A DNA stretch of 35,528 nucleotides from Caldilineae bacterium (GTDB lineage: Bacteria > Chloroflexota > Anaerolineae > DTLA01): contig JBBIHX010000013.1 of the NCBI GenBank assembly GCA_037446815.1, positions 1 through 35,528 on the forward strand, written 5' to 3'. The notes under the pieces were generated by a model that was given only the letters and a program-made list of their open reading frames with translations, did no database searches and was not told the DNA's origin. Within the stretch, counting starts at the first letter, position 1, and each line of letters begins with the position of its first letter. A program made the position numbers and the translations under genes. Positions 250 to 32,181 of the stretch are shown in pieces.

Positions 250-954
250 ATGGCGAGGATCGTGCTCATCTCGGACGACCTGGAACTATCCCGTGAGGTG
301 GCCCAGCGTCTGGAGGACAAAGGCCACGTGGTGATTCCCATGGAGTGCATGGAGGCGCGGTTCTACCAGGCGGCGCAATTGCGGCCCGACCTGCTGGTGG
401 CCGATTTCGCTTCCATGTCGCGCGACGCCTCCTCGGCGTTCCAGCGGGCGCTGGCCAATCTTGACCTCAAGTGCCCTGTGCTGGGCATCTTCGGCGCGCT
501 GGATGTGGTGCGCAGCCTGCCCGCCCTGGTGGGGACGGCGGATGCCCTGGCAGGGAAGCAGACGCCGCGCAAAGGCAAGCCCGTCAGCGGCGAGTACGGC
601 TTCATGAGCCTGGACGTGCACCGCCGCGAGGTTACCATCCGCGGGGTCAGCATTCCCCTTACGCCGACGGAGACGCATATTCTCTCCATTCTCGCGGCCA
701 ACGTAGGCAGGTACATCAGCCCGCAGGCCATCGCCTCCGAGATTCAGGGGTACGAGGTGGACGAGCGCGAGGCGGGCGAGATGGTGCGCGTGCACATCCA
801 CAACCTGCGGCGCAAGTTCCAGAAGGCGGGCATTGGCCCCCCGTACATCGTGAGTTCGCGCGGGAAGGGCTACCTGCTGGAGCGCCGCACGCGGCCTCGC
901 GGTAGCCGGGTCAAGGGGCTTGGCGGGCTGCTGGATTCGTCGCCGTCACGCTGA
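250..954 (+). CDS. OmpR/PhoB-family winged-helix transcriptional regulator with degenerate receiver domain
   Basis: N-terminal IVLISDD...PDLLVAD receiver-like segment; C-terminal LTPTE-x2-IL...VRVHIHNLRRK...SRGKGY wHTH; GGAGG upstream. Confidence 0.85.
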   Translation: MARIVLISDDLELSREVAQRLEDKGHVVIPMECMEARFYQAAQLRPDLLVADFASMSRDASSAFQRALANLDLKCPVLGIFGALDVVRSLPALVGTADALAGKQTPRKGKPVSGEYGFMSLDVHRREVTIRGVSIPLTPTETHILSILAANVGRYISPQAIASEIQGYEVDEREAGEMVRVHIHNLRRKFQKAGIGPPYIVSSRGKGYLLERRTRPRGSRVKGLGGLLDSSPSR

Positions 955-1275: not shown

Positions 1276-1284
1276 TGATATAAT
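1276..1284 (+). promoter_or_regulatory. extended -10 promoter for the riboswitch/peptidase transcript
   Basis: TGaTATAAT about 80 nt upstream of the riboswitch; no good -35. Confidence 0.55.
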
Positions 1285-1362: not shown

Positions 1363-1459
1363 GAGGTTCCGACAAGGGCAAACCACGGGTGACCGTGGGA
1401 CGCAAAGCCACGGGTCTTGTGGCCTCCATCCCAAGATCGCCGGGCCGCCGAAGAACCTC
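1363..1459 (+). ncRNA. cyclic di-GMP-I (GEMM) riboswitch
   Basis: AAGGGCAAACC-ACGG-GTGA(GNRA loop)-CCGTGG-GACGCAAAGCCACGGGTCTTG...CAAGATCGCCGGGCCGCCGAA matches the c-di-GMP-I consensus; closing helix GAGGTTC (1363-69)/GAACCTC (1453-59); Vc2 G20/A47/C92 equivalents present. Confidence 0.92.
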
Positions 1460-1505
1460 TGTTGTTTTGGTAATCAGGTTCGCCCCCCCAGGGAAGTTGT
1501 TGTAC

Positions 1506-1562
1506 ATGGGAACTGAGCAGCATCGGAACTTCGGCAGCCGACGCAGCGTGAACTGGGGATAG
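1506..1562 (+). CDS. 18-aa small peptide MGTEQHRNFGSRRSVNWG (putative precursor peptide)
   Basis: ATG 1506 to TAG 1560-62, AGGGAAG upstream; last five codons encode exactly the SVNWG unit repeated in both downstream peptidases; below the ORF-track size cutoff. Confidence 0.7.
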   Translation: MGTEQHRNFGSRRSVNWG

Positions 1563-1587
1563 ACAGACCGAAGGAGGTCAGCAGGAA

Positions 1588-3171
1588 ATGGAGACCCGCG
1601 TAGGCCGGCTTTTTCGGTTACCTGTGTACCTTGTGCTTGTCCTCTGTCTAGTCCTCGTTACCCTCTTGCCCGCCGCCCGCCCGGCGGCTCGTCCGCTGCC
1701 CATTGACCGCGCGCTGTATGCGATTCTCGCGCAGGCAGAGAGCGATGCTCCCATCGCCGTCATCGTCCAGAAAGCGACCCCCGGCGCCGAGGCCGAGGCG
1801 ATGGTGCGCAGCCTTGGCGGCGAAGTCGTGCGCTCCTGGAGCATCATCCCGGCGTTCCTGGCCAACCTATCGGCCGATGCCATCCGCCAACTGGCCCAAA
1901 GTGGCCTCGTGCGCTGGATATCGTGGGATAGCCCGGTGGTGAAGCAAGATAGCGGCGAAGCGGACACAATCGCTCTCATCGGCGCGTACCTCAACGCCTA
2001 CAATGCCACCATCGGCGCGACCACGGCGTGGAACTACGGGTTCACGGGCAGGGGCATTGGGGTCGCCGTGGTGGACAGCGGCGTAACGCCCAAGACCGAC
2101 TTCCTGGCGACTTCATACAGCCTGACGCGCACAAGCCGACTGGTGGCCAACGTTACCTTTGCCAACACCATCTCGGCCTACACCAGCCGCGTCAACACCA
2201 CCACGTCGGACATCTTCGGCCACGGGACTCATATCGCCGGCATCATCGGCAGCAACGGAGCCAGTTCGGGGGGCACCTTCAAGGGGGTGGCACCCGATGT
2301 GAACCTCATCAACCTGCGGGTCGCCGATTTCAACGGCCGCGCCTTTGAATCGGACATGGTGGACGCGCTCCAGTGGATTTACGATCACCGCAAGGAGTAC
2401 AACATCCGCGTCGTGAATGTGTCCATGAACTCGGCCACGGCGCAATCGTACCACACCAGCCCGCTGGACGCCGCGCTGGAAATCCTCTGGTTCAACGGCG
2501 TCGTCGTCATCGTATCGGCGGGGAACAACGGCGGCGTAGCGACAATGGGCACGGTTCCGGGTGTCCTGTATCCGCCCGCCAACGACCCGTTCGTCATCAC
2601 GGTGGGCGCATCGGATGACATGGGCACGTCGTACACGTGGGATGACATCCTGGCTCCGTTCTCGGCCTACGGGGTTACCGAGGACGGCTTCTGGAAGCCG
2701 GAACTGGTAGCCCCCGGCGCGCACATCATCAACCTGCTGGCCAGCCCCGACTGCACCATCGCGGTTCAGCACCCCGAGGCCCTGTACGGAGGCGCGTTCC
2801 TGCGGCTATCGGGCACGTCTATGTCCGCCGGCGTGGCGAGCGGGGCGGTGGCCCTGCTGCTCCAGGCGCGGCCCGACGTGAACCCCGACCAAGTGAAATG
2901 GGCGCTGATGAACTCGGCCACGCCGCTGCGGCACACCGGCGCGGGGGCGGGCATCCTCAACGTCTGGGCCGCCATCAACCTGGGCAAGTACGACACGGCC
3001 AACACCGGCACCGTGGCCAGCAAACTGCTGTGGACGGGCTCCGACCCTATCAACTGGGGTTCGGTGAATTGGGGCAGCGTGAATTGGGGTTCGGTCAATT
3101 GGGGTAGCGTGAACTGGGGCAGCGTCAACTGGGGTTCGGTCAACTGGGGAAGCGTCAATTGGGGCTACTAG
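1588..3171 (+). CDS. secreted subtilisin-like S8 serine peptidase (AprX-like) with C-terminal (SVNWG)7 tail
   Basis: Signal peptide, I9-like prodomain, triad VAVVDSG / HGTHIAG / GTSMS, SAGN oxyanion Asn; RBS AAGGAGG 1571-77. Confidence 0.93.
   Translation: METRVGRLFRLPVYLVLVLCLVLVTLLPAARPAARPLPIDRALYAILAQAESDAPIAVIVQKATPGAEAEAMVRSLGGEVVRSWSIIPAFLANLSADAIRQLAQSGLVRWISWDSPVVKQDSGEADTIALIGAYLNAYNATIGATTAWNYGFTGRGIGVAVVDSGVTPKTDFLATSYSLTRTSRLVANVTFANTISAYTSRVNTTTSDIFGHGTHIAGIIGSNGASSGGTFKGVAPDVNLINLRVADFNGRAFESDMVDALQWIYDHRKEYNIRVVNVSMNSATAQSYHTSPLDAALEILWFNGVVVIVSAGNNGGVATMGTVPGVLYPPANDPFVITVGASDDMGTSYTWDDILAPFSAYGVTEDGFWKPELVAPGAHIINLLASPDCTIAVQHPEALYGGAFLRLSGTSMSAGVASGAVALLLQARPDVNPDQVKWALMNSATPLRHTGAGAGILNVWAAINLGKYDTANTGTVASKLLWTGSDPINWGSVNWGSVNWGSVNWGSVNWGSVNWGSVNWGSVNWGY
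3046..3165 (+). repeat. coding 15-bp tandem repeat: PINWG + 7 x SVNWG
   Basis: Eight in-frame 15-nt units; the seven SVNWG units all differ at synonymous sites. Confidence 0.97.
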
Positions 3172-3220
3172 GGCTGCCCGTTCGGAAACTTTGCGAGAAC
3201 ATAGTCGGAGGCAGAAGCAA

Positions 3221-4861
3221 ATGATTCAAGCAGGCAGACGACTCATCTGGCGACTGGCACTGACCATTGTCGTGCTCGCGGCCATGATTGCCGTGTTCGC
3301 GCCGAGTCCTGCGTCTGCCGAGCCCCCCAGGCTAGACGAACAGTTGTCGGCGATGATAGCCAACGCAACCGAGGACATGGTGCCGGTCATCGTGCGGGTG
3401 TACGATGGCAATGACGCAGCCGCGGTCAAGGCGCTTGTGGAGCGGCTGGGCGGCCAATTGGGCGTGGACTTGGAGTTCATCCAGGCCTTCGCCGCTCGGG
3501 TGCCCACGGCGGCCCTGGCGCGGCTGGGTAGCGACCGCCGCGTGCGCTCGGTTTCCTACGACCGCCCGATTCTGCCGCAGGACGACGGCGAGGCCGCAGA
3601 CCCCGAATGGACGCCGAGGCCGGACCGAATCGTCAACACGTACAACTTCACCATCGGCGCCGACAGGGCATGGGCCGAGGGCATCACCGGCCGGGGCGTA
3701 ACCATCGCCGTTGTGGACAGCGGCGTGCAGTATCACCTAGACCTCTTGAGCAACATCCTGATGGGCTGGAGCATCTTTGCGACGGGGTTGCCTGCCCATG
3801 TGGACAATTACGGACACGGGACCCATGTGGCCGGCATCATCGCGGGCACGGGGGCCTTCAGCCAGGGCAAGTATGTGGGCATCGCGCCCAACGCGAAGAT
3901 CCTGCCCGTGCGGGTGTGCGACGCCAACGGAGCCAGCAGCGAGTCATCCCTGGTGGCCGGCCTCCAGTGGGTGTATTACAATCGCAACCTCTACAACATC
4001 CGCGTCGTCAACGTCTCACTGAACTCTGATAGCCTCCTCTCGTATCACCAAAGCCCGCTGGACGCGGCGCTGGAAATCCTATGGTTCAACCGCATCGTGG
4101 TGGTGGTGTCGGCGGGGAATAGCCGCGGACAGGTCTACCCGCCCGCCAACGACCCCTTTGTCATTACCGTTGGCGCGGTGGACGAGCACGGGACGCGCAC
4201 GACCGCCGATGATACCGTCGCGCCCTTCTCCGGCTATGGCACCACGCCCGAAGGGTTCAGCAAGCCCGACTTGGTGGCGCCGGGCGTCAACATTGTGAGC
4301 ACGCTGGCGTATACCGGCTGCCGGCTGAGCCGCGAACACCCCGACCATCGGGTGGACACGCGCTACTTCCGCCTCTCGGGCACGTCCATGGCGGCGGCGG
4401 TAACCAGCGGCGCGGTGGCCCTGCTGCTCCAGGCGCGGCCCAACCTGAACCCTGATCAGGTGAAGATGCTCCTGAAGGCTTCGGCCACGCCGTTGAACCA
4501 GACGGGCGCGGGGGCGGGCATCCTCAACGTGTACAACGCGATTCACATGCAAGGCGTCGGCACTGCCAACACCGGCACGCCCGCGTCGGCGCTCCTGTGG
4601 ACAGGCTCCGATCCCGTGAATTGGGGGTCGGTGAACTGGGGCAGCGTCAACTGGGGGTCGGTGAATTGGGGTAGCGTGAACTGGGGCAGTGTCAACTGGG
4701 GCAGCGTCAACTGGGGATCGGTGGATTGCTCGTCGGTGAACTGGGGGCGCAAGCCGCGCATCCCGGTTTCCGTCAACTGGGGCTGGATTCCGACGAGGTC
4801 GGTCAACTGGGGTTGGGCCCCGGCCCGGTCTGTAAACTGGGGCGGCGGCCCGCGAAAATAA
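3221..4861 (+). CDS. second secreted S8 serine peptidase (paralog) with SVNWG repeat tail
   Basis: Likely start ATG 3221 (GGAGG 3207-11); signal peptide ending ASA-E; IAVVDSG / HGTHVAG / GTSMA; shares YHxSPLDAALEILWFN and LLWTGSDP with the first peptidase. Confidence 0.93.
   Translation: MIQAGRRLIWRLALTIVVLAAMIAVFAPSPASAEPPRLDEQLSAMIANATEDMVPVIVRVYDGNDAAAVKALVERLGGQLGVDLEFIQAFAARVPTAALARLGSDRRVRSVSYDRPILPQDDGEAADPEWTPRPDRIVNTYNFTIGADRAWAEGITGRGVTIAVVDSGVQYHLDLLSNILMGWSIFATGLPAHVDNYGHGTHVAGIIAGTGAFSQGKYVGIAPNAKILPVRVCDANGASSESSLVAGLQWVYYNRNLYNIRVVNVSLNSDSLLSYHQSPLDAALEILWFNRIVVVVSAGNSRGQVYPPANDPFVITVGAVDEHGTRTTADDTVAPFSGYGTTPEGFSKPDLVAPGVNIVSTLAYTGCRLSREHPDHRVDTRYFRLSGTSMAAAVTSGAVALLLQARPNLNPDQVKMLLKASATPLNQTGAGAGILNVYNAIHMQGVGTANTGTPASALLWTGSDPVNWGSVNWGSVNWGSVNWGSVNWGSVNWGSVNWGSVDCSSVNWGRKPRIPVSVNWGWIPTRSVNWGWAPARSVNWGGGPRK
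4613..4843 (+). repeat. coding repeat: PVNWG + 10 x SVNWG, the last ones separated by spacers
   Basis: 6 tandem SVNWG, SVDCS, SVNWG, RKPRIPV, SVNWG, WIPTR, SVNWG, WAPAR, SVNWG. Confidence 0.97.
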
Positions 4862-4874
4862 CGGTTCGCGATTC

Positions 4875-4910
4875 ACCCTGCCCGGGCGCACTCGGGCAGG
4901 GTTTGCGTTT
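4875..4910 (+). terminator. putative intrinsic terminator after the peptidase pair
   Basis: CCCTGCCCG / CGGGCAGGG stem followed by TTTGCGTTT. Confidence 0.6.
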
Positions 4911-4937
4911 GACCTCTCGGTAGTAGCATGCTACTAT
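4909..4937 (+). promoter_or_regulatory. promoter with overlapping palindromic operator for the GGDEF/HD-GYP gene
   Basis: TTGACC-17nt-TACTAT with TG extension; perfect 16-bp palindrome TAGTAGCATGCTACTA at 4921-4936. Confidence 0.55.
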
Positions 4938-4968
4938 TCGCCTACTCCGCAGAGCAGAGAGGGGAGCG

Positions 4969-7707
4969 ATGAAAGACCTGTCAAGGCCCGCGCGAGCCTA
5001 CATTCTGGGCATTCTCGGGTTGACGATAGTTGCCGTCCTGTTCGGCGCCGTGGCCTCGCCGCCGCGGAATGTGGATTGGGCCTTGTTGGGGTTCTTGCTC
5101 GTCGGCGCGATGACGGCGCAGTATTTCACCGTCGTTACGCCCAAGCATCAGCACTATTACCTGACGCCGGCCTTCTTCTTCGCCAGCATCGTGCTCCAAC
5201 ACCCGCTGATTTTCGCCCTTGTGGTGGCGCTGGGGCATGTGCCCGAGTGGCTCAAAGTCAAGTATCGCTGGTATATCCAATCGTTCAACATTGCGGGGCA
5301 CACGCTGGCCGGGTTCGCGGGCAAGACGGTGCTGGCGCTGTTGGTGGGGGCCGAGCGAAACCCCACGCCGAACGTAGCAGGCATCGTGGCGGTGCTGGCT
5401 GCGGCCTCCACGTACATTCTGGTGAACCACCTGCTGGTCGGCATCGTCCTCATGCTGGCGCGCAACGTGAGCCTCCGCGAGTCCCAGGTGCTCAGCCCCG
5501 CGAATCTGCTGACCGACCTGGCGCTGGCGTGCGTGGGCGGGGCCATGGCCTTTCTCTGGATGCTGGGGCCGTGGCTGGTGATCCTGGGCACCGCGCCGCT
5601 GCTGCTCATTCACCGCGCCCTGAGCATTCCGGCCCTGCGCGAGGAGGCGCAGGTGGACGCGAAGACAGGGCTGTACAACGTCAAGTACTTCACCACCAGT
5701 CTGAACGATGAGTTGCGGCGCGCGCGGCGATTCGGTCGCCCCCTTGCCGTCATCATGGCCGATTTGGACGGCTTGCGGCACATCAACAACACGCATGGGC
5801 ACCTGGCGGGCGACGCCGTACTGGCCGCCATCGGCAAGATCATCCGCGAGCAGGTGCGTGAGTACGACGTGGCGGCCCGCTTCGGCGGCGAGGAGTTCGC
5901 CCTCCTCATGCCCGAAACCACCACCGACGAGGGGTATGTGGTGGCCGAGCGCATTCGCAAAGCGGTGGAGTCCACGCCGATTCAGATTCCGACGCGGGTG
6001 GAGCCTATCTACGTAACCATCACGGCGGGGGTGGCGTCCTATCCCACCGATGGGTACGAGCCGCAGCAACTGCTCCATGCTGCCGACGTGGCGCTGTATC
6101 AGGGCAAAGCCTCGGGCAAGAACCGCGTCCGCATGTCGGCTCCTGGACAAGGGCCGGAGCCGCCGATTCCCCCGCCGCCCGCCGACGGCGCCGAGCAGCC
6201 GCCCGCCGCGTCCCCCCCTGGCTCGGAAGGGGCCCCCGCGCCCATGGCTGCTCCGCTCAACCCCGCGGCCGACACGGGGGAGCGTTTCGCTGCGCAGGCG
6301 AAGCCGCGACGCATGCCGAAGGCGGCATGGGCGGTCGTTAGCGCGGTGATGATGTGCGGCCTGATTCTGTGGGCGCTCTATCTCCCGTCCGCGAGCCGAT
6401 TTGACGTAACAGGGCTGCTGATCTTGGCGGGTTTCGCCGGCTTGGCCGAACTGTTCTCCGTGGACCTGTACGGGGCGAGTACCGTGTCGGTCAGTTTCGT
6501 GGCGATTTTTGCGGCGGCGCTGATGTACGGGCCGGTGGGCGCGGCTGTGGTCGGCCCGGTCATCGCCATCGGCCACTGGATCAAGCGGCGGCCTCGCATC
6601 TACCAGGTGGTATTCAACGCGGCGAATCACACGATTTCCAGCACCGTAGCGGCGTTCCTGTTCGCGCTGGCGGGCGTCAAACTCCGACCGGAGAACATTT
6701 TGTTGCTGGCGGTGCCGGTGCTGCTCGCGGGCCTCGTCAACTACTTTATCAGCACCATGCTGGTATCCACGGCGCTGGGGCTGTCGGAGAGGACAAACCC
6801 ATGGCGGTTGTGGAAGGAGCAGTTTCGCTGGTTGGCCGTGCACTACGTGGTGATGGCATTCCTGGCGATGTTCTTCGCGCTGGCGTATCTGACGTTTGGC
6901 GTCTGGGGAGTGGTGGCCTTTCTTGCGCCGCTGCTCATCATGCGCTACGCGCAGAAGCAGTACGTGGATCAGACGGTGCAGAACGTGGCAGCCCTGCGCA
7001 AGGTGAACCAGGAACTGGCCCGCGCGAACGAAGAGATACAAATGATCAACGACGAACTGCTGATGACGCTGGCCAGCGCCATTGACGCGCGCGACCCGTA
7101 TGTGTACGGCCATTCGGCCCGCGTGGCCGAGTACGCTGTGGCCCTGGCGCGAGAGTTGAGCCTGCCGCCGGAGCGGGTGGAACTGGTGCGACGAGCGGCC
7201 CTGCTCCACGACGTGGGCAAGATCGGCCTGCCCGAGCGCGTGCTCAACAAGCGCGGCAACCTCACGGTTGAGGAGTACGAGGTGATGAAACAACACGCCC
7301 TGGCCGCCGATGGCATCCTGGGCGTGTGCCACCAACTCCAGAATCTGGTGCCCATTGTCTCGGCGCACCATGAACGCTGGGATGGCAAGGGCTATCCCAA
7401 AGGCTTGGCCGGCGACAGCGTCCCGTTGGAGGCGCGCATTTTGGCCCTGGCCGACGCGGTGGAAGCCATGGCGTCCGACCGAACCTACCACCGCGCCAAG
7501 CCCGCCGAGGAGATTCTGGCCGAAGTGGAGCGGAACGCCGGAACGCAGTTTGACCCTGCGGTGGCCGCGGCGTTTGTGCGCGTCGTGAAACGCGAGGGCC
7601 CGCAGTTCATCCGCAACTCGGCGCAAGAGGTCAACAGCCGCCGCGGCACAGGCCAATGGCAACCGCCGGAGTGGCTATCGCAAGACTGGCAGACGGAGGC
7701 CGGGTAG
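4969..7707 (+). CDS. membrane diguanylate cyclase / HD-GYP phosphodiesterase fusion with two multi-TM sensor regions
   Basis: Hydrophobic N-terminus; DAKTGLYN...REYD (RxxD I-site)...RFGGEEF; Pro-rich linker; second TM region; LLHDVGK and HHERWDGKGYP. Confidence 0.92.
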   Translation: MKDLSRPARAYILGILGLTIVAVLFGAVASPPRNVDWALLGFLLVGAMTAQYFTVVTPKHQHYYLTPAFFFASIVLQHPLIFALVVALGHVPEWLKVKYRWYIQSFNIAGHTLAGFAGKTVLALLVGAERNPTPNVAGIVAVLAAASTYILVNHLLVGIVLMLARNVSLRESQVLSPANLLTDLALACVGGAMAFLWMLGPWLVILGTAPLLLIHRALSIPALREEAQVDAKTGLYNVKYFTTSLNDELRRARRFGRPLAVIMADLDGLRHINNTHGHLAGDAVLAAIGKIIREQVREYDVAARFGGEEFALLMPETTTDEGYVVAERIRKAVESTPIQIPTRVEPIYVTITAGVASYPTDGYEPQQLLHAADVALYQGKASGKNRVRMSAPGQGPEPPIPPPPADGAEQPPAASPPGSEGAPAPMAAPLNPAADTGERFAAQAKPRRMPKAAWAVVSAVMMCGLILWALYLPSASRFDVTGLLILAGFAGLAELFSVDLYGASTVSVSFVAIFAAALMYGPVGAAVVGPVIAIGHWIKRRPRIYQVVFNAANHTISSTVAAFLFALAGVKLRPENILLLAVPVLLAGLVNYFISTMLVSTALGLSERTNPWRLWKEQFRWLAVHYVVMAFLAMFFALAYLTFGVWGVVAFLAPLLIMRYAQKQYVDQTVQNVAALRKVNQELARANEEIQMINDELLMTLASAIDARDPYVYGHSARVAEYAVALARELSLPPERVELVRRAALLHDVGKIGLPERVLNKRGNLTVEEYEVMKQHALAADGILGVCHQLQNLVPIVSAHHERWDGKGYPKGLAGDSVPLEARILALADAVEAMASDRTYHRAKPAEEILAEVERNAGTQFDPAVAAAFVRVVKREGPQFIRNSAQEVNSRRGTGQWQPPEWLSQDWQTEAG

Positions 7708-7989: not shown

Positions 7990-8061
7990 TATCTTCCAGG
8001 GCCCATGCCACCCGCGGGGGCAGCGATGCATACAATCGCCCCAATGAGGGAGGGCCTGAAG

Positions 8062-10404
8062 ATGGCTATCGTACATGAGGTGATGAAATTGCAGGAAACG
8101 GCAGGGGGAGCTGCCCTAATCGTAGAGGCGGCCACACCAGAGGAAATGACGCGCATCGCCCGCATGCTGGCGGAGGTTGCGCCGTGGGTTATGCCCGTGT
8201 TCGCCGCCTCTACGTCGCAGGCGAGCGCATTGGAGGCCGCCCTCGCCCAGCACAACGGCCTGGTCGTGCAACGGGTTCGCTCCGCGGACGAACTGGCGGC
8301 GCTGCTGGATGCGCTCCGCCGAACGGGTACACCGCGCCGGCCCCCGTCCTGGCTGGGCGGGCTGCTGCGGCTAAGCCTCGCCGTGAGTTCCATCCAGGAC
8401 CAGGACTCGCTGCTGGAGGAACTCCTGGGGCAGGCGACGGCGCTCACCGATGCGGTGCACGGGTGCGTGTGGCTGGTGGACGACGCCGATGGGGTGCTGA
8501 TGCATAGGGCATGCGCGCCGGATTCGCAGTCGGCCCACGCGGCGCTTCCGCCCGGCCTCCCCGAATGGGTGCAGCAGAACCGCAAGGCCATCCTCATCAC
8601 CGCCGCGCCCGACCCCTCGCTCTTGGCGTACACGCGCGCCACGGGGAGCGGGCTTGCCGTCCTGTCCATCCGCCTGGACCGCCGGGCGAAAGGCGAGGCG
8701 CTGGCCGTCCCGCTGATGGCTGCAAGCCGACTGCTGGGCGTGCTGTGCCTCCAGGCGCGGGAGTCGCGCGGAGCCTTCTCCGGCGAGCAGTTTGAGGCGG
8801 TGTCGGTGATGGCGGCGCAGGTGGCCATGAGCCTGGAAGGGACGCGCCTTTTCGCCCGCGTACAGCAGGGCAAGAAGGAATGGGAGGCGACGTTTGACGC
8901 CATCGGCGAGGCGGTGCTGCTCATCAGCCCCGATGGCAAGATTCTCCGGGCGAATCAGGCAGCGGCGCGGGTGGCCGGGCGCCGCTTTACAGACATGGTC
9001 GGCGAGCGCTGTTGCCAGGTGATGGGCGAAACGCGCGAGGCGCCCGACGGCTGCCCACTGGCGCAGGTGCTCCAGACGCGCCGCCCCGCTTCCGCCGAGA
9101 TCACCGACCGCGACGGCTCTCGCATTCGGCATGTGGCCATCTACCCCATCTTTGACGCGCGCGGCGAAATCCAGGCGTTGGTGGAGTACGCCCGCGACAT
9201 CACGCAAATCAAAGCGGCCCAGGCGCGCCTCCTGCAGGCCGAAAAACTGTCGGCCCTGGGCGAGTTGACCGCGGGCGTGGCCCACGAGTTGAACAACCCG
9301 CTGACCTCTATCTTGGGCTTCGTCCAGTTGCTGCAGCGCACCGAACTTTCAGAACGCCAGTCATCCTATCTGGGCGTGATTCACGACGAGACGCGCCGCG
9401 CCGCCCGCATCGTGCGCAACCTGCTCACCTTTGCCCGGCGCCAGGAGCCGGAGAAGAAGATGCTGGACATCAACACCATCCTGGAGGAGACCCTGTCGCT
9501 CCTGGCGTACCAACTGCGCGTGAGCGGCGTCAAGGTGGAGCAAGACCTGGATCCCAACCTGCCCAGGACGGCCGCCGACCCCTACCAGTTGCAGCAGGTG
9601 TTCGTCAACATCATCAACAACGCCCAGCAGGCCATGCAAGAGGCGCACGGCGGCGGCACGCTCACCATCCGCACGATGCCGGTGCTCCGGCCCGCGGGAT
9701 ACGCGCACAACTCCACCCTGAACCTGTCCGACCAACCCGAGTCCACCATGGAGAGTTGGGTGCGCGTGGAATTCACCGACGACGGCCCGGGCATCCCGCC
9801 AGAACTCCTGACGCGCATCTTTGACCCGTTCTTCACGACCAAGGCGCCCGGCAAGGGCACCGGCCTCGGGCTGAGCGTGTGCCACGGCATCGTCCGCGAC
9901 CACGACGGACACATCTGGGCCGAGAGCACGCCAGGACGCGGCGCTACGTTCATCCTGGAATTGCCGGTGCGTGGAGTGCGCAAGGCCGAGGCGGAGAAGG
10001 TCGCCCACGACCGCCTGCCCGAACTGCCGCCGGGCAATGTGCTGGTCATGGACGATGAGGAGAGCACGCTGCGCCTGCTCAAGGAACTTCTGTCCCAACA
10101 CGACCAGAAGGTGGACACGCTGGCGGAGGGCGCGGAGGCGAAGGAGCGCATCGCCGCCACCAGTTACGACGTTATTCTGTGCGACGTGCGCATGCCCGGC
10201 TTCGGGGGCGATGCGCTGTACGAGTACCTGAAGGAGCACCGCCCGGAACTGGTCAAGCGCCTTGTGTTCATCACCGGCGACACGGCCAGCGCCCAGACGC
10301 GGGCCTTCTTGCGCAAGGCGGGCCGCCCGGTGGTGGAGAAGCCCTTTGACGTGGCCGAACTTCTCCGCATCATGCAGAACATCTACCGCGACGCGCGGGA
10401 ATAG
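8062..10404 (+). CDS. hybrid sensor histidine kinase (GAF-PAS-HisKA-HATPase-REC)
   Basis: EWEATFDAI PAS start, AHELNNPL H-box, QVFVNIINNA, DDGPG, FFTTK, GTGLGL, C-terminal VMDDE..ILCD..EKPF; start uncertain (8005-8083). Confidence 0.92.
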   Translation: MAIVHEVMKLQETAGGAALIVEAATPEEMTRIARMLAEVAPWVMPVFAASTSQASALEAALAQHNGLVVQRVRSADELAALLDALRRTGTPRRPPSWLGGLLRLSLAVSSIQDQDSLLEELLGQATALTDAVHGCVWLVDDADGVLMHRACAPDSQSAHAALPPGLPEWVQQNRKAILITAAPDPSLLAYTRATGSGLAVLSIRLDRRAKGEALAVPLMAASRLLGVLCLQARESRGAFSGEQFEAVSVMAAQVAMSLEGTRLFARVQQGKKEWEATFDAIGEAVLLISPDGKILRANQAAARVAGRRFTDMVGERCCQVMGETREAPDGCPLAQVLQTRRPASAEITDRDGSRIRHVAIYPIFDARGEIQALVEYARDITQIKAAQARLLQAEKLSALGELTAGVAHELNNPLTSILGFVQLLQRTELSERQSSYLGVIHDETRRAARIVRNLLTFARRQEPEKKMLDINTILEETLSLLAYQLRVSGVKVEQDLDPNLPRTAADPYQLQQVFVNIINNAQQAMQEAHGGGTLTIRTMPVLRPAGYAHNSTLNLSDQPESTMESWVRVEFTDDGPGIPPELLTRIFDPFFTTKAPGKGTGLGLSVCHGIVRDHDGHIWAESTPGRGATFILELPVRGVRKAEAEKVAHDRLPELPPGNVLVMDDEESTLRLLKELLSQHDQKVDTLAEGAEAKERIAATSYDVILCDVRMPGFGGDALYEYLKEHRPELVKRLVFITGDTASAQTRAFLRKAGRPVVEKPFDVAELLRIMQNIYRDARE

Positions 10405-29990: not shown

Positions 29991-30102
29991 AGCCATTAGC
30001 CTCTAGCCCTTGGCCTTTAGCCCCTAGCCCTTGGTTGGCAGTGGGACTAATGGCTCTATCGGCCAAAGGCTAAAGGCTAACGGCTAACGGCTAGAGGCTA
30101 AC
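29991..30102. repeat. 7-nt periodic tandem repeat and its inverse between nuoK and nuoL
   Basis: (TAGCCNN)n followed by (GGCTAAN)n. Confidence 0.85.
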
Positions 30103-30123: not shown

Positions 30124-32181
30124 GTGAACTCACCGATGACAGAACTGTTTGACTGGGTACGACTGATACCGCTCTTTCCGTTTCTGGCGTTCGCGATCAT
30201 CCTGCTGTTCACCCAGCGCAACCAGAAACTGAGCACGTATCTGGCGTGGGTCGGGATCGGGCTGGCGTGGATTCTGGGCTGGACGATTGCCTTCCGCGCC
30301 ATGGCCGATCCGCATGTCCTGGAAGAGGGATTCCGCGCGCCCATCTTCGCCATCCCGACGGGGCGCGGCCTTCTGGAACTGGGCTTCCAGGTGGACGCCC
30401 TCACAACGGCCATGCTGTTCATGGTTCCGTTCGTGTGCCTGATGATCTTCATCTACTCCAAAGGGTACATGCACGGCGACCCGCGCTACTCGCGGTTCTT
30501 CGCCTACGTCTCGCTGTTCGCTACGGGCATGCTCGGTCTCATCGTGTCCGATAACTTGCTGCTGCTGTACATCTTCTGGGAAGTCATGGGGCTGTGCTCC
30601 TACCTGCTCATCGGGTTCTGGTTTGAGAAGCCGTCGGCGATGAAGGCGGGGCTGAAGGCGTTCATCACCACGCGCATCGGCGATGTTATCATGTTCCTGG
30701 GCATGCTCCTGCTGTACTCCACGACGGGCACGCTCAGTTTCCACGAGATTTTCTCGGAGGAGACGCTCCACTTCCTGAAGGAGACGATGGTCTGGGTGCC
30801 GCTGGTGGGCACGGTGCCGGTGGCGCCTGTGATCGCGATCCTTCTGTTCGGCGGGGCGGTGGGCAAGTCGGCCCAGTTCCCGCTACACGTGTGGCTTCCC
30901 GACGCCATGGAAGGCCCCACGCCGGTCTCGGCCCTCATCCATGCGGCCACGATGGTGTCGGCGGGCGTGTACCTGGTAGCCCGCATGTTCCCCATCTTCG
31001 CGCTGCTGCCCGAGACGGCGTCCATGTCGGTTGTCGCCTTCATCGGCGGGTTCACGGCGCTGTTTGCGGCGACCATCGCCCTGGCGCAGGACGACATCAA
31101 GCGCGTGCTGGCCTACTCCACCATCAGCCAACTGGGCTACATGATTGCGGCGCTGGGCGTGGGCGCGTATGTGGCGGCCACGTTCCACCTCATTACCCAC
31201 GCCTTCTTCAAGGCGCTGCTGTTCCTCGGCTCCGGCTCTGTGATTCACGGCGCGGGGACGCAGGACATGATGGAGATGGGCGGCCTGCGCAAGAAGATGC
31301 CCATCACGTTCTGGACGTTCCTGGTGGGCATGTTGGCGCTGGCGGGGGTTCCGCCCTTCGCGGGCTTCTGGAGCAAGGACGAAATCCTGGCCCACGCCTT
31401 TGAGGAGTTCCTGCACAAGGGCGTGGCGTCGTGGCCGTTCTTCGTGTGGCTGGTGCTGTCGCTGGGCGCGCTGCTGACGGCGTTCTACATGGCGCGGCAG
31501 GTGTTCCTCACCTTCTACGGCGAGACCCGCTCGCATCACATGCACGCCCACGAAAGCCCGAAGGTGATGACCTACCCGCTCATCGCCCTGGCGGTCTTCG
31601 CGGCCTTGCTCGGGTTCGCGGGCGTCCCGGAGGAGTTCCCGGTGCTGGGGCCGCTGTTCGGGCACAACTTCTTCCATCACGTGGTGGGCCACGCCTACCC
31701 GGCCACGCCGCTGAATTGGGGCGTGATGGGGCTGTCGGTGCTGCTGGCGCTGACGGGCCTGTTCTTGGGGTGGGTGGTGTACGGGCGCAACCCGCTGAAG
31801 CACGGCCAGCCCGACCCGTTGACCAAATTGGGGCCGATGTACACGCTGCTGCGCAACAAGTACTACATTGACGAGTTCTACAGCAAGGTCATCGTGCGGC
31901 CTGCCGTGGCCCTTGCCACCCTGCTGTTCCGCTTTGACAACTCGTGGGTGGTGGATCCGTTCGTCAACCTGGTGGGCAAAGTCGGCGTCTGGCTGTCGGA
32001 CCTGGGGCGCATCTTTGACCTGAACATCATAGACGGCATCGTCAACGGCGTGGCGGCCGTAACCGCGTGGTTCGGCAAGATTCTGCGCCTGACCCAGACC
32101 GGCAAGGCCCAGAACTACTTGCTGGTCGCCGTGTTGACGGTCCTGTTGTTGCTGGGATTGTATCTCTACCTGCCCATGTAG
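30124..32181 (+). CDS. nuoL: NADH-quinone oxidoreductase subunit L
   Basis: WEVMGLCSYLLIGFW, GKSAQFPLHVWLPDAMEGPTPVSALIHAATMV, HAFFKALLFL; start 30124 or 30136. Confidence 0.95.
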   Translation: MNSPMTELFDWVRLIPLFPFLAFAIILLFTQRNQKLSTYLAWVGIGLAWILGWTIAFRAMADPHVLEEGFRAPIFAIPTGRGLLELGFQVDALTTAMLFMVPFVCLMIFIYSKGYMHGDPRYSRFFAYVSLFATGMLGLIVSDNLLLLYIFWEVMGLCSYLLIGFWFEKPSAMKAGLKAFITTRIGDVIMFLGMLLLYSTTGTLSFHEIFSEETLHFLKETMVWVPLVGTVPVAPVIAILLFGGAVGKSAQFPLHVWLPDAMEGPTPVSALIHAATMVSAGVYLVARMFPIFALLPETASMSVVAFIGGFTALFAATIALAQDDIKRVLAYSTISQLGYMIAALGVGAYVAATFHLITHAFFKALLFLGSGSVIHGAGTQDMMEMGGLRKKMPITFWTFLVGMLALAGVPPFAGFWSKDEILAHAFEEFLHKGVASWPFFVWLVLSLGALLTAFYMARQVFLTFYGETRSHHMHAHESPKVMTYPLIALAVFAALLGFAGVPEEFPVLGPLFGHNFFHHVVGHAYPATPLNWGVMGLSVLLALTGLFLGWVVYGRNPLKHGQPDPLTKLGPMYTLLRNKYYIDEFYSKVIVRPAVALATLLFRFDNSWVVDPFVNLVGKVGVWLSDLGRIFDLNIIDGIVNGVAAVTAWFGKILRLTQTGKAQNYLLVAVLTVLLLLGLYLYLPM

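Follow-up and report, generated by a model that had tools for sequence, protein, structure and literature searches.

Do a secreted protease and a membrane-bound enzyme of cyclic di-GMP (c-di-GMP) turnover that are encoded side by side act on each other, and which part of the protease would then make the contact? This question is raised by a locus of a Caldilineae bacterium (Chloroflexota; Anaerolineae; GenBank assembly GCA_037446815.1), in which a predicted c-di-GMP-I riboswitch precedes two genes for secreted subtilases of the S8 family, designated S8a and S8b. Both proteases end in a tail of tryptophan-containing pentapeptides of the type SVNWG, and the gene that follows encodes P0005, a membrane protein with a GGDEF and an HD-GYP domain. 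The window, i.e. the whole stretch of 35,528 nucleotides (nt) that was analysed, is a complete contig (JBBIHX010000013.1; C13) of a 3.19-Mb genome that is 94% complete. The original prediction had read the locus as a peptide-signalling module: the subtilases would release SVNWG peptides, the membrane domains of P0005 would sense them, and the resulting change in c-di-GMP would act back on the riboswitch. A beta-solenoid or amyloid-like matrix element formed by the repeats had been offered as the alternative.

RNA families were called by cmscan of the window with the gathering score as cut-off, and protein domains were called with Pfam profiles. Two samples were used for comparison. The class sample consists of 151 evenly sampled Anaerolineae genomes, and the second sample of 75 loci, one genome per species, that were selected solely on similarity to the S8 alignment. 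The genomes and loci behind the counts are related to each other, and the pairing counts are descriptive, without a formal test. The Pfam model of the membrane sensor domain MASE9 turned out to be too insensitive for the class genomes, as it failed to recover homologues of 38-46% identity that came up in tblastn searches with P0005. Therefore, P0005 itself was used as the query.

Pairing of the protease gene with a membrane c-di-GMP enzyme

A strong match to the S8 protease (E <1e-150) is present in 12 of the 151 class genomes, five of which belong to the genus of the window and seven to four other families (G040, G082 and G121 of f37; G083 of f38; G042 and G123 of f39; G055 of f5). All 12 genomes carry a full-length P0005 homologue downstream of the protease gene and on the same strand, at a gap of 4 nt to about 1.2 kb. 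Outside the genus, these neighbours are 38-46% identical to P0005. Among the 75 loci, a gene with a Pfam-confirmed GGDEF and/or HD-GYP domain lies within 1 kb of the S8 gene in 29 cases and slightly further away in eight more, and the loci with this pairing come from Chloroflexota, Acidobacteriota, Bacillota and Actinomycetota. Within 1.5 kb of the S8 gene, GGDEF and HD-GYP domains occur at a density of 1.70 per 10 kb, as compared to 0.25-0.32 per 10 kb at a distance of 3-8 kb, which served as the internal control. The conserved synteny that the original prediction had called for was thus found across several phyla, and the proximity of a membrane c-di-GMP enzyme to the tailed S8 clade is conserved rather than a local oddity.

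The architecture of the partner varies. The order transmembrane (TM)-GGDEF-TM-HD-GYP is found in many Chloroflexota families, in Symbiobacteriaceae, in Clostridia and in metagenome-assembled genomes of Mycobacteriales. Elsewhere, the partner consists of TM-GGDEF alone or of TM-GGDEF-EAL, and in Acidobacteriota and Desulfosporosinus it is a MASE9-HD-GYP protein with or without GAF and GGDEF domains, often encoded divergently. All-against-all clustering of the neighbouring open reading frames (ORFs) yielded no third conserved neighbour family; the other large clusters consisted of frames read antisense to the S8 and cyclase genes and were discarded. Two single loci deserve mention. The partner in L096 (9546-12587) combines a MASE9-like TM domain, a GGDEF domain and a second TM domain with a histidine kinase (HisKA/HATPase) in place of HD-GYP, and its gene is located directly 3' of an S8 gene with a TSSWS tail. 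In L087 (9744-11249), a sigma-54 activator with a C-terminal PilZ domain, which binds c-di-GMP, is encoded directly downstream of an Acidobacteriota S8 gene; judged by its domains, this gene is a further c-di-GMP link for the same protease clade.

The membrane c-di-GMP enzyme P0005

The membrane regions, the GGDEF domain and the HD-GYP domain that had been read from the gene behind the proteases were all confirmed by Pfam, which added the MASE9 assignment. TM1 spans amino acids (aa) 1-222, GGDEF 227-386 (E 3.5e-44), TM2 466-657 and HD-GYP 701-865 (HD_5/HD-GYP, E 3.7e-38). MASE9 (PF20972) matches in two stretches with 36.9 bits against a gathering score of 24.3, with the best stretch at 466-657. 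TM1 and TM2 are homologous to each other (BLASTP E 3e-5), share a conserved FN(I/W)AxH motif and are each present in a single copy in the genome of the window, as judged by tblastn. Among 120 homologues, the polar or aromatic residues N107, N153, H154 and R165 of TM1 and N550, H554, W615 and W621 of TM2 are conserved.

The GGDEF domain reads REYD-VAARF-GGEEF, with an intact RxxD inhibitory site five residues upstream of the signature motif, and G306, G307 and E309 are invariant in the 120 homologues. The HD-GYP domain has the intact motifs HDVGK and HHERWDGKGYP; residues H800, H801, E802, G806, G808, Y809 and P810 are nearly invariant. Because the motifs of both domains are intact, cyclase and phosphodiesterase activities are both plausible. 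The genome of the window is poor in such domains, with only three GGDEF and three HD-GYP matches by tblastn. A second, separate ORF matching MASE9 (about 470 aa, 26.2 bits) is located on another contig (G000 C33:2799-3239) and has counterparts in the other four genomes of the genus.

The S8 proteases and their Trp-periodic tail

S8a and S8b match Peptidase_S8 (PF00082) with E-values of 4e-41 and 5e-50, respectively, and are about 50% identical. The catalytic residues D163, H212 and S411 of S8a and the oxyanion residue N313 are invariant in 120 aligned sequences. The AlphaFold2 model of S8a (predicted local distance difference test (pLDDT) 81; predicted template modelling score 0.81) has the subtilisin fold, a hydrophobic N-terminal helix (residues 13-26) and an I9-like beta-alpha-beta-beta-alpha-beta propeptide (56-113), which is consistent with a secretory pre-pro organisation. 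Among 8000 candidates scored, 7393 proteins match S8a at E ≤0.001.

A six-frame scan found SVNWG 21 times in the 3.19-Mb genome. The 18 copies at this locus, distributed over three consecutive genes as 1 (1545-1559), 7 (3061-3165) and 10 (4628-4843), reproduce the counts of the original prediction; contigs C7 and C186 contribute the remaining three, each standing alone in an unrelated long ORF. This clustering is far beyond chance. The tail of S8a (3046-3168) consists of PINWG, seven SVNWG units and a final Y. That of S8b (4613-4843) consists of PVNWG, six SVNWG units, SVDCS and four further SVNWG units that are parted by short basic or Pro-containing spacers. Both tails match Pentapeptide_2 (PF01469) with 38.7 and 36.4 bits, respectively, against a gathering score of 26.4, a label that is uninformative on the function of the tail. 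PF00805 (Pentapeptide) is absent from the Pfam matches at E up to 0.01.

The tail is a trait of the whole clade. Each of the 119 S8a homologues listed, the best 119 of the 7393, ends in at least four Trp residues at a period of five; the tails have 5-18 Trp, the median being 8. The unit is SVNWG in 52 of these proteins, SVNWN in 24, SVHWD in 11, SVQWG in 8 and SVNWD in 7, others making up the rest. Within one protein, the units agree at all five positions; between lineages, they differ. The codons, in contrast to the peptide, vary between units and orthologues (GTG/GTC, AAC/AAT, all four Gly codons, AGC versus TCG for Ser). Thus, the uniformity of the units is selected at the protein level. 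Moreover, one metagenomic relative has a fresh 60-nt duplication in its tail. Because of this duplication and the codon variation, the units probably turn over by slippage, while the peptide sequence and a count of about eight appear to be held by selection.

Among the 75 loci, at least four short-period aromatic units are located at the tail position in 58. Distant tails of period 5 in other phyla are built from ASWSD/ASWAE, ITWDN, AYWDQ, KASWT or NVFFE, and tails of period 6 occur in Acidobacteriota (xxxWGx) and Gammaproteobacteria (GYTWSx). A phmmer search of 1.84 billion representative sequences with a 58-residue tail gave 627 matches at E up to 0.001. Among the best 147 of these, 102 have at least four Trp at period 5; 60 of the 102 have S8 motifs and the other 42 are mostly short fragments. 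Thus, the tail is mainly, not exclusively, an S8 feature. Thousands of metagenomic proteins carry it, and it appears to be uncharacterised. The remaining 45 of the 147 matches were generic XNXGX low-complexity sequences, including eukaryotic proteins. A Protein Atlas look-up of the tail pointed to Actinomycetota clusters at 0.91 that share few features with it, and these were disregarded. Two tblastn matches to the tail only (L021 and L022) were short frames that we treated as artefacts; the one in L022 runs antisense inside a 380-aa ORF, and L021 was less fully checked. Two further proteins or loci extend the range of the repeat. P0284 (597 aa) carries SVNWN-type Trp repeats together with a phage-metallopeptidase domain (PF18894), i.e. 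the array occasionally sits on another protease family. Locus L041 (109-12839) has four consecutive S8 genes, three of them encoding proteins of 900-1450 aa with 16-17 SVNWG units, and no c-di-GMP enzyme is encoded in the available sequence of this locus.

The riboswitch and the leader-encoded motif

The c-di-GMP-I riboswitch that had been proposed to precede the locus was recovered with two Rfam models, namely RF03167 (c-di-GMP-I-GGC; 68.0 bits against a gathering score of 59) and its parent model RF01051 (66.7 bits against 35). It is the sole RNA family above gathering in the window, lies 135 nt 5' of S8a on the same strand and has the same position in all five genomes of the genus. The RNA is classified as a c-di-GMP-I aptamer by this covariance-model match, the ligand specificity of the GGC sub-model being absent from the main text of PMC5737381; ligand binding and switching are predicted.

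Aptamers of this class were found in 29 of the 151 class genomes and directly 5' of an S8 gene in 11 of them, i.e. the five genomes of the genus and G123, G042, G083, G129, G092 and G050. With a covariance model built from 30 class aptamers, an aptamer 5' of the S8 gene was detected in 11 of the 75 loci, all from Chloroflexota. Tandem aptamers precede the S8 gene in four loci (Table 1). The co-occurrence with GEMM riboswitches that the original prediction had expected extends to the partner: aptamers also stand 5' of the cyclase/phosphodiesterase gene in L034 and L037, and in L037 this gene, too, has a tandem pair. Other c-di-GMP-I aptamers of the class precede other secreted proteins. For instance, the second such riboswitch in the genome of the window (G000 C31:9013-9091; locus L001 1500-1985) precedes a 131-aa secreted protein without a Pfam match that ends in SRYAWW, and the riboswitch of G055 (L117) precedes a 139-aa relative ending in SRWAWW; the two look like a small secreted family under riboswitch control. 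A further recurrent riboswitch-controlled family of secreted proteins of about 355-505 aa was seen in L108, L111, L116 and L125 (G083, G041, G084 and G122, respectively) and has the pattern ...PNDPxRGLxYDGL...CTHGPD...CDGDGxSGNRVQVLY.

Between the aptamer and S8a, a small ORF (sORF) encodes a peptide that ends exactly in SVNWG. Its frame is intact in seven of eight genus-level sequences, of which one starts with GTG and another has lost 3 nt in frame; in G003 the start codon is lost and the motif reads SENWG. The N-terminal half of the peptide varies freely in the eight sequences, and the residues preceding the motif (RR, QN, QC, QS or RS) are not conserved. The FG and SVNWG-stop codons of the sORF are invariant in nucleotides, those of SVNWG in seven of the eight sequences, whereas their counterparts in the tails vary. 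This invariance fits the overlap with the expression platform and, taken alone, would argue for an RNA element. As read from its translation, the peptide is hydrophilic and has no signal sequence.

The motif recurs in leaders outside the genus, which upholds the idea of sORFs sharing the motif of the tails. S[IV]NW is encoded just 3' of the aptamer in five of 20 leaders, representing four independent lineages, as compared to none of the 20 when the reverse strand is read and to 0.015 per 20 on average after shuffling. The codons differ by lineage (TCA ATC AAT TGG in G083, AGC ATT AAC TGG in G042), and so does the context. G083 encodes, between riboswitch and S8 gene, a 119-aa membrane-anchored, Cys-rich protein (L100 2542-2898; contig C87) that opens with SINWGK and has four VDWG motifs, the tail of the protease downstream being made of SVDWG; four database homologues (49-98% identical) keep every motif. 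In G042, the motif is part of an N-terminal extension of the protease (RSINWT), and in L035 three copies of FSVNWQF stand ahead of the signal peptide. Because S[IV]NW recurs across lineages with differing codons, the leader motif is, on this comparison of sequences, also selected as a peptide.

The direction of control can be read in two ways. An extended P1 helix, in which GAACCUC (1453-1459) pairs with GAGGUUC (1363-1369), is present in the aptamer-closed folds and is followed by a U-rich tract (1460-1468), suggesting a ligand-dependent terminator and pointing to an OFF switch. In five of seven leaders of the genus, however, the minimum-energy fold pairs the Shine-Dalgarno sequence GGAGG of S8a (1573-1577) with CCUCC (1423-1427) in the aptamer and, likewise in five of seven, an anti-P1 element, CUUCGGCAGCC (1529-1539), with the 3' strand of the aptamer. 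This arrangement could be an ON switch if ligand binding frees the Shine-Dalgarno sequence. Relatives have a classical terminator 3' of the aptamer, and no such hairpin is present in the genus of the window. In six of 11 leaders of these relatives, the 3' strand of the aptamer is complementary to the 5' arm of the terminator at a level that is met by at most 11 of 200 shuffles; these layouts look like OFF switches, in which c-di-GMP would turn expression off. By analogy with the relatives, we lean towards OFF for the genus of the window as well.

A proposed feedback module and its alternatives

On balance, the locus is probably a conserved protease/c-di-GMP feedback module, in which the protease and the MASE9 enzyme are functional partners and the tail is the likeliest contact between them. 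The riboswitch would gate an operon of two genes, both for S8 subtilases that are Sec-exported and catalytically intact, and would set the protease output by the c-di-GMP level. The neighbouring gene would use its own promoter and supply two MASE9-type TM sensors that drive an intact GGDEF and an intact HD-GYP domain. The MASE9 domains would respond to the exported protease; most likely, the cue would be the Trp-periodic tail, tethered to the enzyme and docked at the membrane or envelope, although they could also respond to something that proteolysis produces. The response would shift the balance between synthesis and degradation of c-di-GMP, which would feed back on protease expression via the riboswitch and close the loop. 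The aptamer, the domains, the selection on the tail peptide, the pairing across phyla and the recurrence of riboswitch and leader motif are observed; that protease and MASE9 enzyme are coupled physically or functionally, that the tail couples them and which way the control runs is what we infer.

Several observations weigh against this proposal. The pairing of the S8 gene with a c-di-GMP enzyme is frequent, not obligatory: 25 of the 58 repeat-bearing loci have no such neighbour in the available sequence, some of them being cut by contig ends. In family f47 (L104-L106), the riboswitch-bearing S8 genes lack both the Trp tail and a c-di-GMP-enzyme neighbour, and therefore riboswitch control does not require the module. 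The MASE9 match is weak, as the score given above is that of the whole protein and TM1 alone reaches 22.2 bits, which is below the cut-off. The terminator between S8b and the cyclase/phosphodiesterase gene makes co-transcription unlikely, and the two readings of the riboswitch conflict within the genus. The fold energy of the whole leader is no better than that of shuffled sequences (z = -0.34), and thus the switch model rests on specific complementarities rather than on energy. Moreover, the link to MASE9 may run via the catalytic domain or the substrate instead of the tail.

The tail could also be a folded or self-associating anchor, i.e. a two-turn beta-helix, a solenoid stack or a binder of envelope or polysaccharide, that keeps the protease at the cell surface or in the matrix; the enzyme next door would not sense the protease and would merely share its biofilm regulation. 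V-N-W-G-S conforms to the pentapeptide-repeat pattern, in which position i is taken by a large hydrophobic residue and position i-2 by a small or hydrophobic one, and the tail matches Pentapeptide_2. Eight units, a tightly conserved count, would make two turns of a four-sided beta-helix. Regularly spaced Trp residues are typical of carbohydrate- or interface-binding surfaces, and other c-di-GMP-I riboswitches of the class also control secreted proteins. However, AlphaFold2 gave no support to the beta-solenoid or amyloid-like element of the original prediction: with 120 sequences, residues 492-527 of S8a have a pLDDT of 38-46, below 50 throughout, and no strands or other secondary structure, although a weak model is no proof of disorder. 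A single fixed solenoid geometry is also hard to fit to the period-6 repeats at orthologous positions in Acidobacteriota and Gammaproteobacteria, and PF00805 does not match. Finally, co-regulation leaves unexplained why MASE9-type enzymes with three different output architectures are the neighbours. We regard the anchor as rather unlikely. Two further explanations place the signal in the peptide itself. According to the first one, which we consider unlikely, the Trp pentapeptide is the cognate ligand of the orphan MASE9 domain: the subtilase would bear about eight copies of its own signal on the tail, with one further copy in the riboswitch leader, and units released by self-processing or presented by tethering would switch the MASE9 enzyme between synthesis and degradation of c-di-GMP, the riboswitch closing the loop. 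If true, peptide signals borne by a protease would control a second messenger in four phyla or more, a new kind of signalling whose 'dialects' (e.g. SVNWG, SVNWN, SVHWD and SIIWGE) are specific to lineages. The second one, a shade less likely again, follows the original prediction in taking the tails and the sORF peptide as multi-copy precursors from which the subtilases release free pentapeptides, e.g. by cutting after each Trp, as a diffusible, lineage-specific and quorum-like signal to MASE9. The identity of the unit positions within a protein and their divergence between lineages in the 119 homologues listed, together with the codon variation that points to selected uniformity, would suit such a signal. 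Subtilisins often accept aromatic residues at the P1 position of the substrate, and each unit provides one. In addition, a separate leader-encoded peptide ends exactly in SVNWG, the VDWG motifs of the small G083 protein match the SVDWG tail of its protease, and MASE9 has no named ligand. Against free peptides stands that the number of units stays near eight in the homologues listed instead of expanding, that no spacers or processing sites separate the units, that the sORF peptide is hydrophilic, lacks a signal sequence and has no conserved residues ahead of SVNWG, that one genus member has lost the start and reads SENWG, and that Pfam scans of the other ORFs in the window revealed no gene for an ABC exporter, Opp or an RRNPP/TPR-type receptor. 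Because the tail length is fixed and the sORF peptide has no export signal, a free SVNWG peptide is less likely than a tethered docking tail.

The remaining alternatives dispense with signalling altogether. Some subtilases, e.g. aqualysin, have C-terminal pro-sequences, and the tail, with its predicted lack of structure and its regularly spaced aromatic residues, could be a pro-region or pseudo-substrate that blocks or delays the active site or aids export and is degraded upon activation, the Trp peptides being by-products without a signalling role. This would explain neither the leader-encoded copies of the motif nor the conserved MASE9 neighbour, nor why the units agree so strictly at all five positions, and we consider it very improbable. 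The least probable explanation, for which we see hardly any room, is that there is no functional link at all, the adjacency being inherited gene order and the leader motif a by-product of RNA structure. The nucleotide invariance of the SVNWG codons in seven of eight sORFs would fit, as would the overlap of the sORF with segments complementary to the 3' half of the aptamer. Yet the adjacency is found in four phyla with different orientations and architectures, and the leader motif is kept with other codons in three other lineages (G083, G042 and L035).

Comparison with known systems

The closest precedent for the riboswitch is zmpI/PPEP-1 (CD2830) of Clostridioides difficile, where the gene of a secreted protease has a class I c-di-GMP riboswitch in its 5' leader that acts as an OFF switch (PMC6366702). 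To that extent the two systems are alike, and relatives of the present locus also appear to have a terminator-type OFF layout. The protease is a zinc metalloprotease there and an S8 serine protease here; moreover, Trp-repeat tails, a motif-bearing leader sORF and an adjacent MASE9 cyclase/phosphodiesterase are present here, and no MASE9-type partner is described for zmpI in the literature searched. For the contact between protease and membrane protein, LapD/LapG of Pseudomonas offers a comparison. LapD is an inner-membrane c-di-GMP receptor that holds a periplasmic protease, and here, too, a membrane protein with c-di-GMP domains is encoded with an exported protease. This precedent suggests protease/membrane-protein contact as the coupling step. 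However, LapD has degenerate GGDEF-EAL domains and signals inside-out, whereas both catalytic domains of P0005 look active and its sensor is MASE9. Likewise, LapG is a cysteine protease; the likeness is one of arrangement and no homology is claimed.

The Phr/Rap system of Bacillus and the Kex2/alpha-factor system resemble the locus in the pentapeptide-sized units, the processing by S8-family proteases and the several identical copies per precursor. Phr and alpha-factor precursors have signal peptides, spacers and defined cleavage sites and are served by dedicated import or receptor proteins. By contrast, the sORF translation and the Pfam scans of the window revealed no export signal, exporter, importer or receptor gene here. 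With PF01469 repeats of the mycobacterial PPE-MPTR type (XNXGX), the tail shares the period of five, N at position 3 and G at position 5; it differs from PF01469 and PF00805 repeats in having Trp in every unit, a fixed number of about eight units, a C-terminal position on a subtilase and no predicted fold.

MASE9 was described by Galperin and Chou (bioRxiv 10.1101/2021.11.05.467447) as a domain of eight TM segments for which intramembrane ligand binding is argued. The available portion of this preprint names no ligand and does not mention the words protease, peptidase or subtilisin. The MASE9-HD-GYP and MASE9-HD-GYP-GAF-GGDEF proteins reported there have the same build as those beside the Acidobacteriota and Bacillota S8 genes. 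As far as that portion goes, the double MASE9-GGDEF-MASE9-HD-GYP build and the partnership with S8 proteases are new here. The individual parts, i.e. GEMM-I riboswitch, S8 peptidase, MASE9, GGDEF and HD-GYP, are known, and the riboswitch-controlled secreted protease has precedent. No description of the Trp tail as a trait of an S8 clade, of its echo in the leader or of the S8/MASE9 pairing was found in the literature searched, which most subscription journals lie outside. Thus, the module is real and apparently undescribed.

Organisation of the locus

The order of regulator, riboswitch, S8a, S8b, cyclase/phosphodiesterase and kinase genes is kept as a whole in the five genomes of the genus (Table 1). 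Because a terminator and a promoter-like site stand between S8b and the gene for P0005, the latter is probably its own transcription unit outside the riboswitch-controlled operon. The promoter-like site is a consensus match, one site having been found in the scan against 0.8 expected; the possible -10 element of the riboswitch operon was missed by the same kind of consensus scan. Away from the module, Tandem Repeats Finder detected two neighbouring heptamer arrays, TAGCCCC-like at 29991-30034 and GGCTAAA-like at 30056-30102, just 5' of a gene for an NADH dehydrogenase subunit at 30124.

Table 1. Features of the locus (positions in the window) and tandem aptamers at related loci (positions in the respective locus)
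Feature	Position	Strand	Remarks
OmpR-type winged-helix regulator gene	250..954	+	Upstream of the module; synteny only within the genus
Possible extended -10 promoter element TGaTATAAT of the riboswitch operon	1276..1284	+	Sequence reading; weak
c-di-GMP-I class riboswitch aptamer	1368..1453	+	RF03167 and RF01051, both above gathering
3' strand of extended P1 helix, GAACCUC, then U-rich tract UGUUGUUUU	1453..1468	+	Sequence reading
Leader sORF, MGTEQHRNFGSRRSVNWG*	1506..1562	+	Translation; overlaps expression platform; SVNWG codons 1545-1559
Shine-Dalgarno sequence GGAGG of S8a	1573..1577	+	Complementary to CCUCC 1423-1427 in the loop of the second aptamer hairpin
S8a, secreted subtilase, 527 aa	1588..3171	+	Signal peptide, I9-like propeptide, catalytic domain D163/H212/S411, Trp tail
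S8b, paralogous secreted subtilase, 546 aa	3221..4861	+	ORF opens with TTG at 3191; likely start ATG at 3221
Intrinsic terminator, end of the protease operon	4875..4912	+	12-bp stem 4875-4902 with 9 GC pairs; T-rich tail
Promoter-like site ahead of the cyclase/phosphodiesterase gene	4909..4937	+	TTGACC-17-TACTAT with TG
P0005, bifunctional membrane c-di-GMP enzyme, 912 aa	4969..7707	+	MASE9-like TM1, GGDEF, Pro-rich linker, MASE9 TM2, HD-GYP
Hybrid GAF-PAS histidine kinase/receiver gene	8005..10404	+	Downstream of the module; synteny only within the genus
Tandem c-di-GMP-I aptamers 5' of S8 and, in L037, also of the cyclase/phosphodiesterase gene	L029 7597-7838; L036 4569-4753; L037 7697-7918 and 9823-10042; L043 1834-2024

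Implications

For MASE9, a membrane sensor domain that is widespread among c-di-GMP enzymes, the clade of Trp-tailed secreted subtilases provides a concrete candidate for the input signal. To our knowledge, there is almost no experimental c-di-GMP biology in Chloroflexota. The riboswitch on the same genes would close a loop from protease to c-di-GMP and back to protease, a design that has not been described for this phylum.

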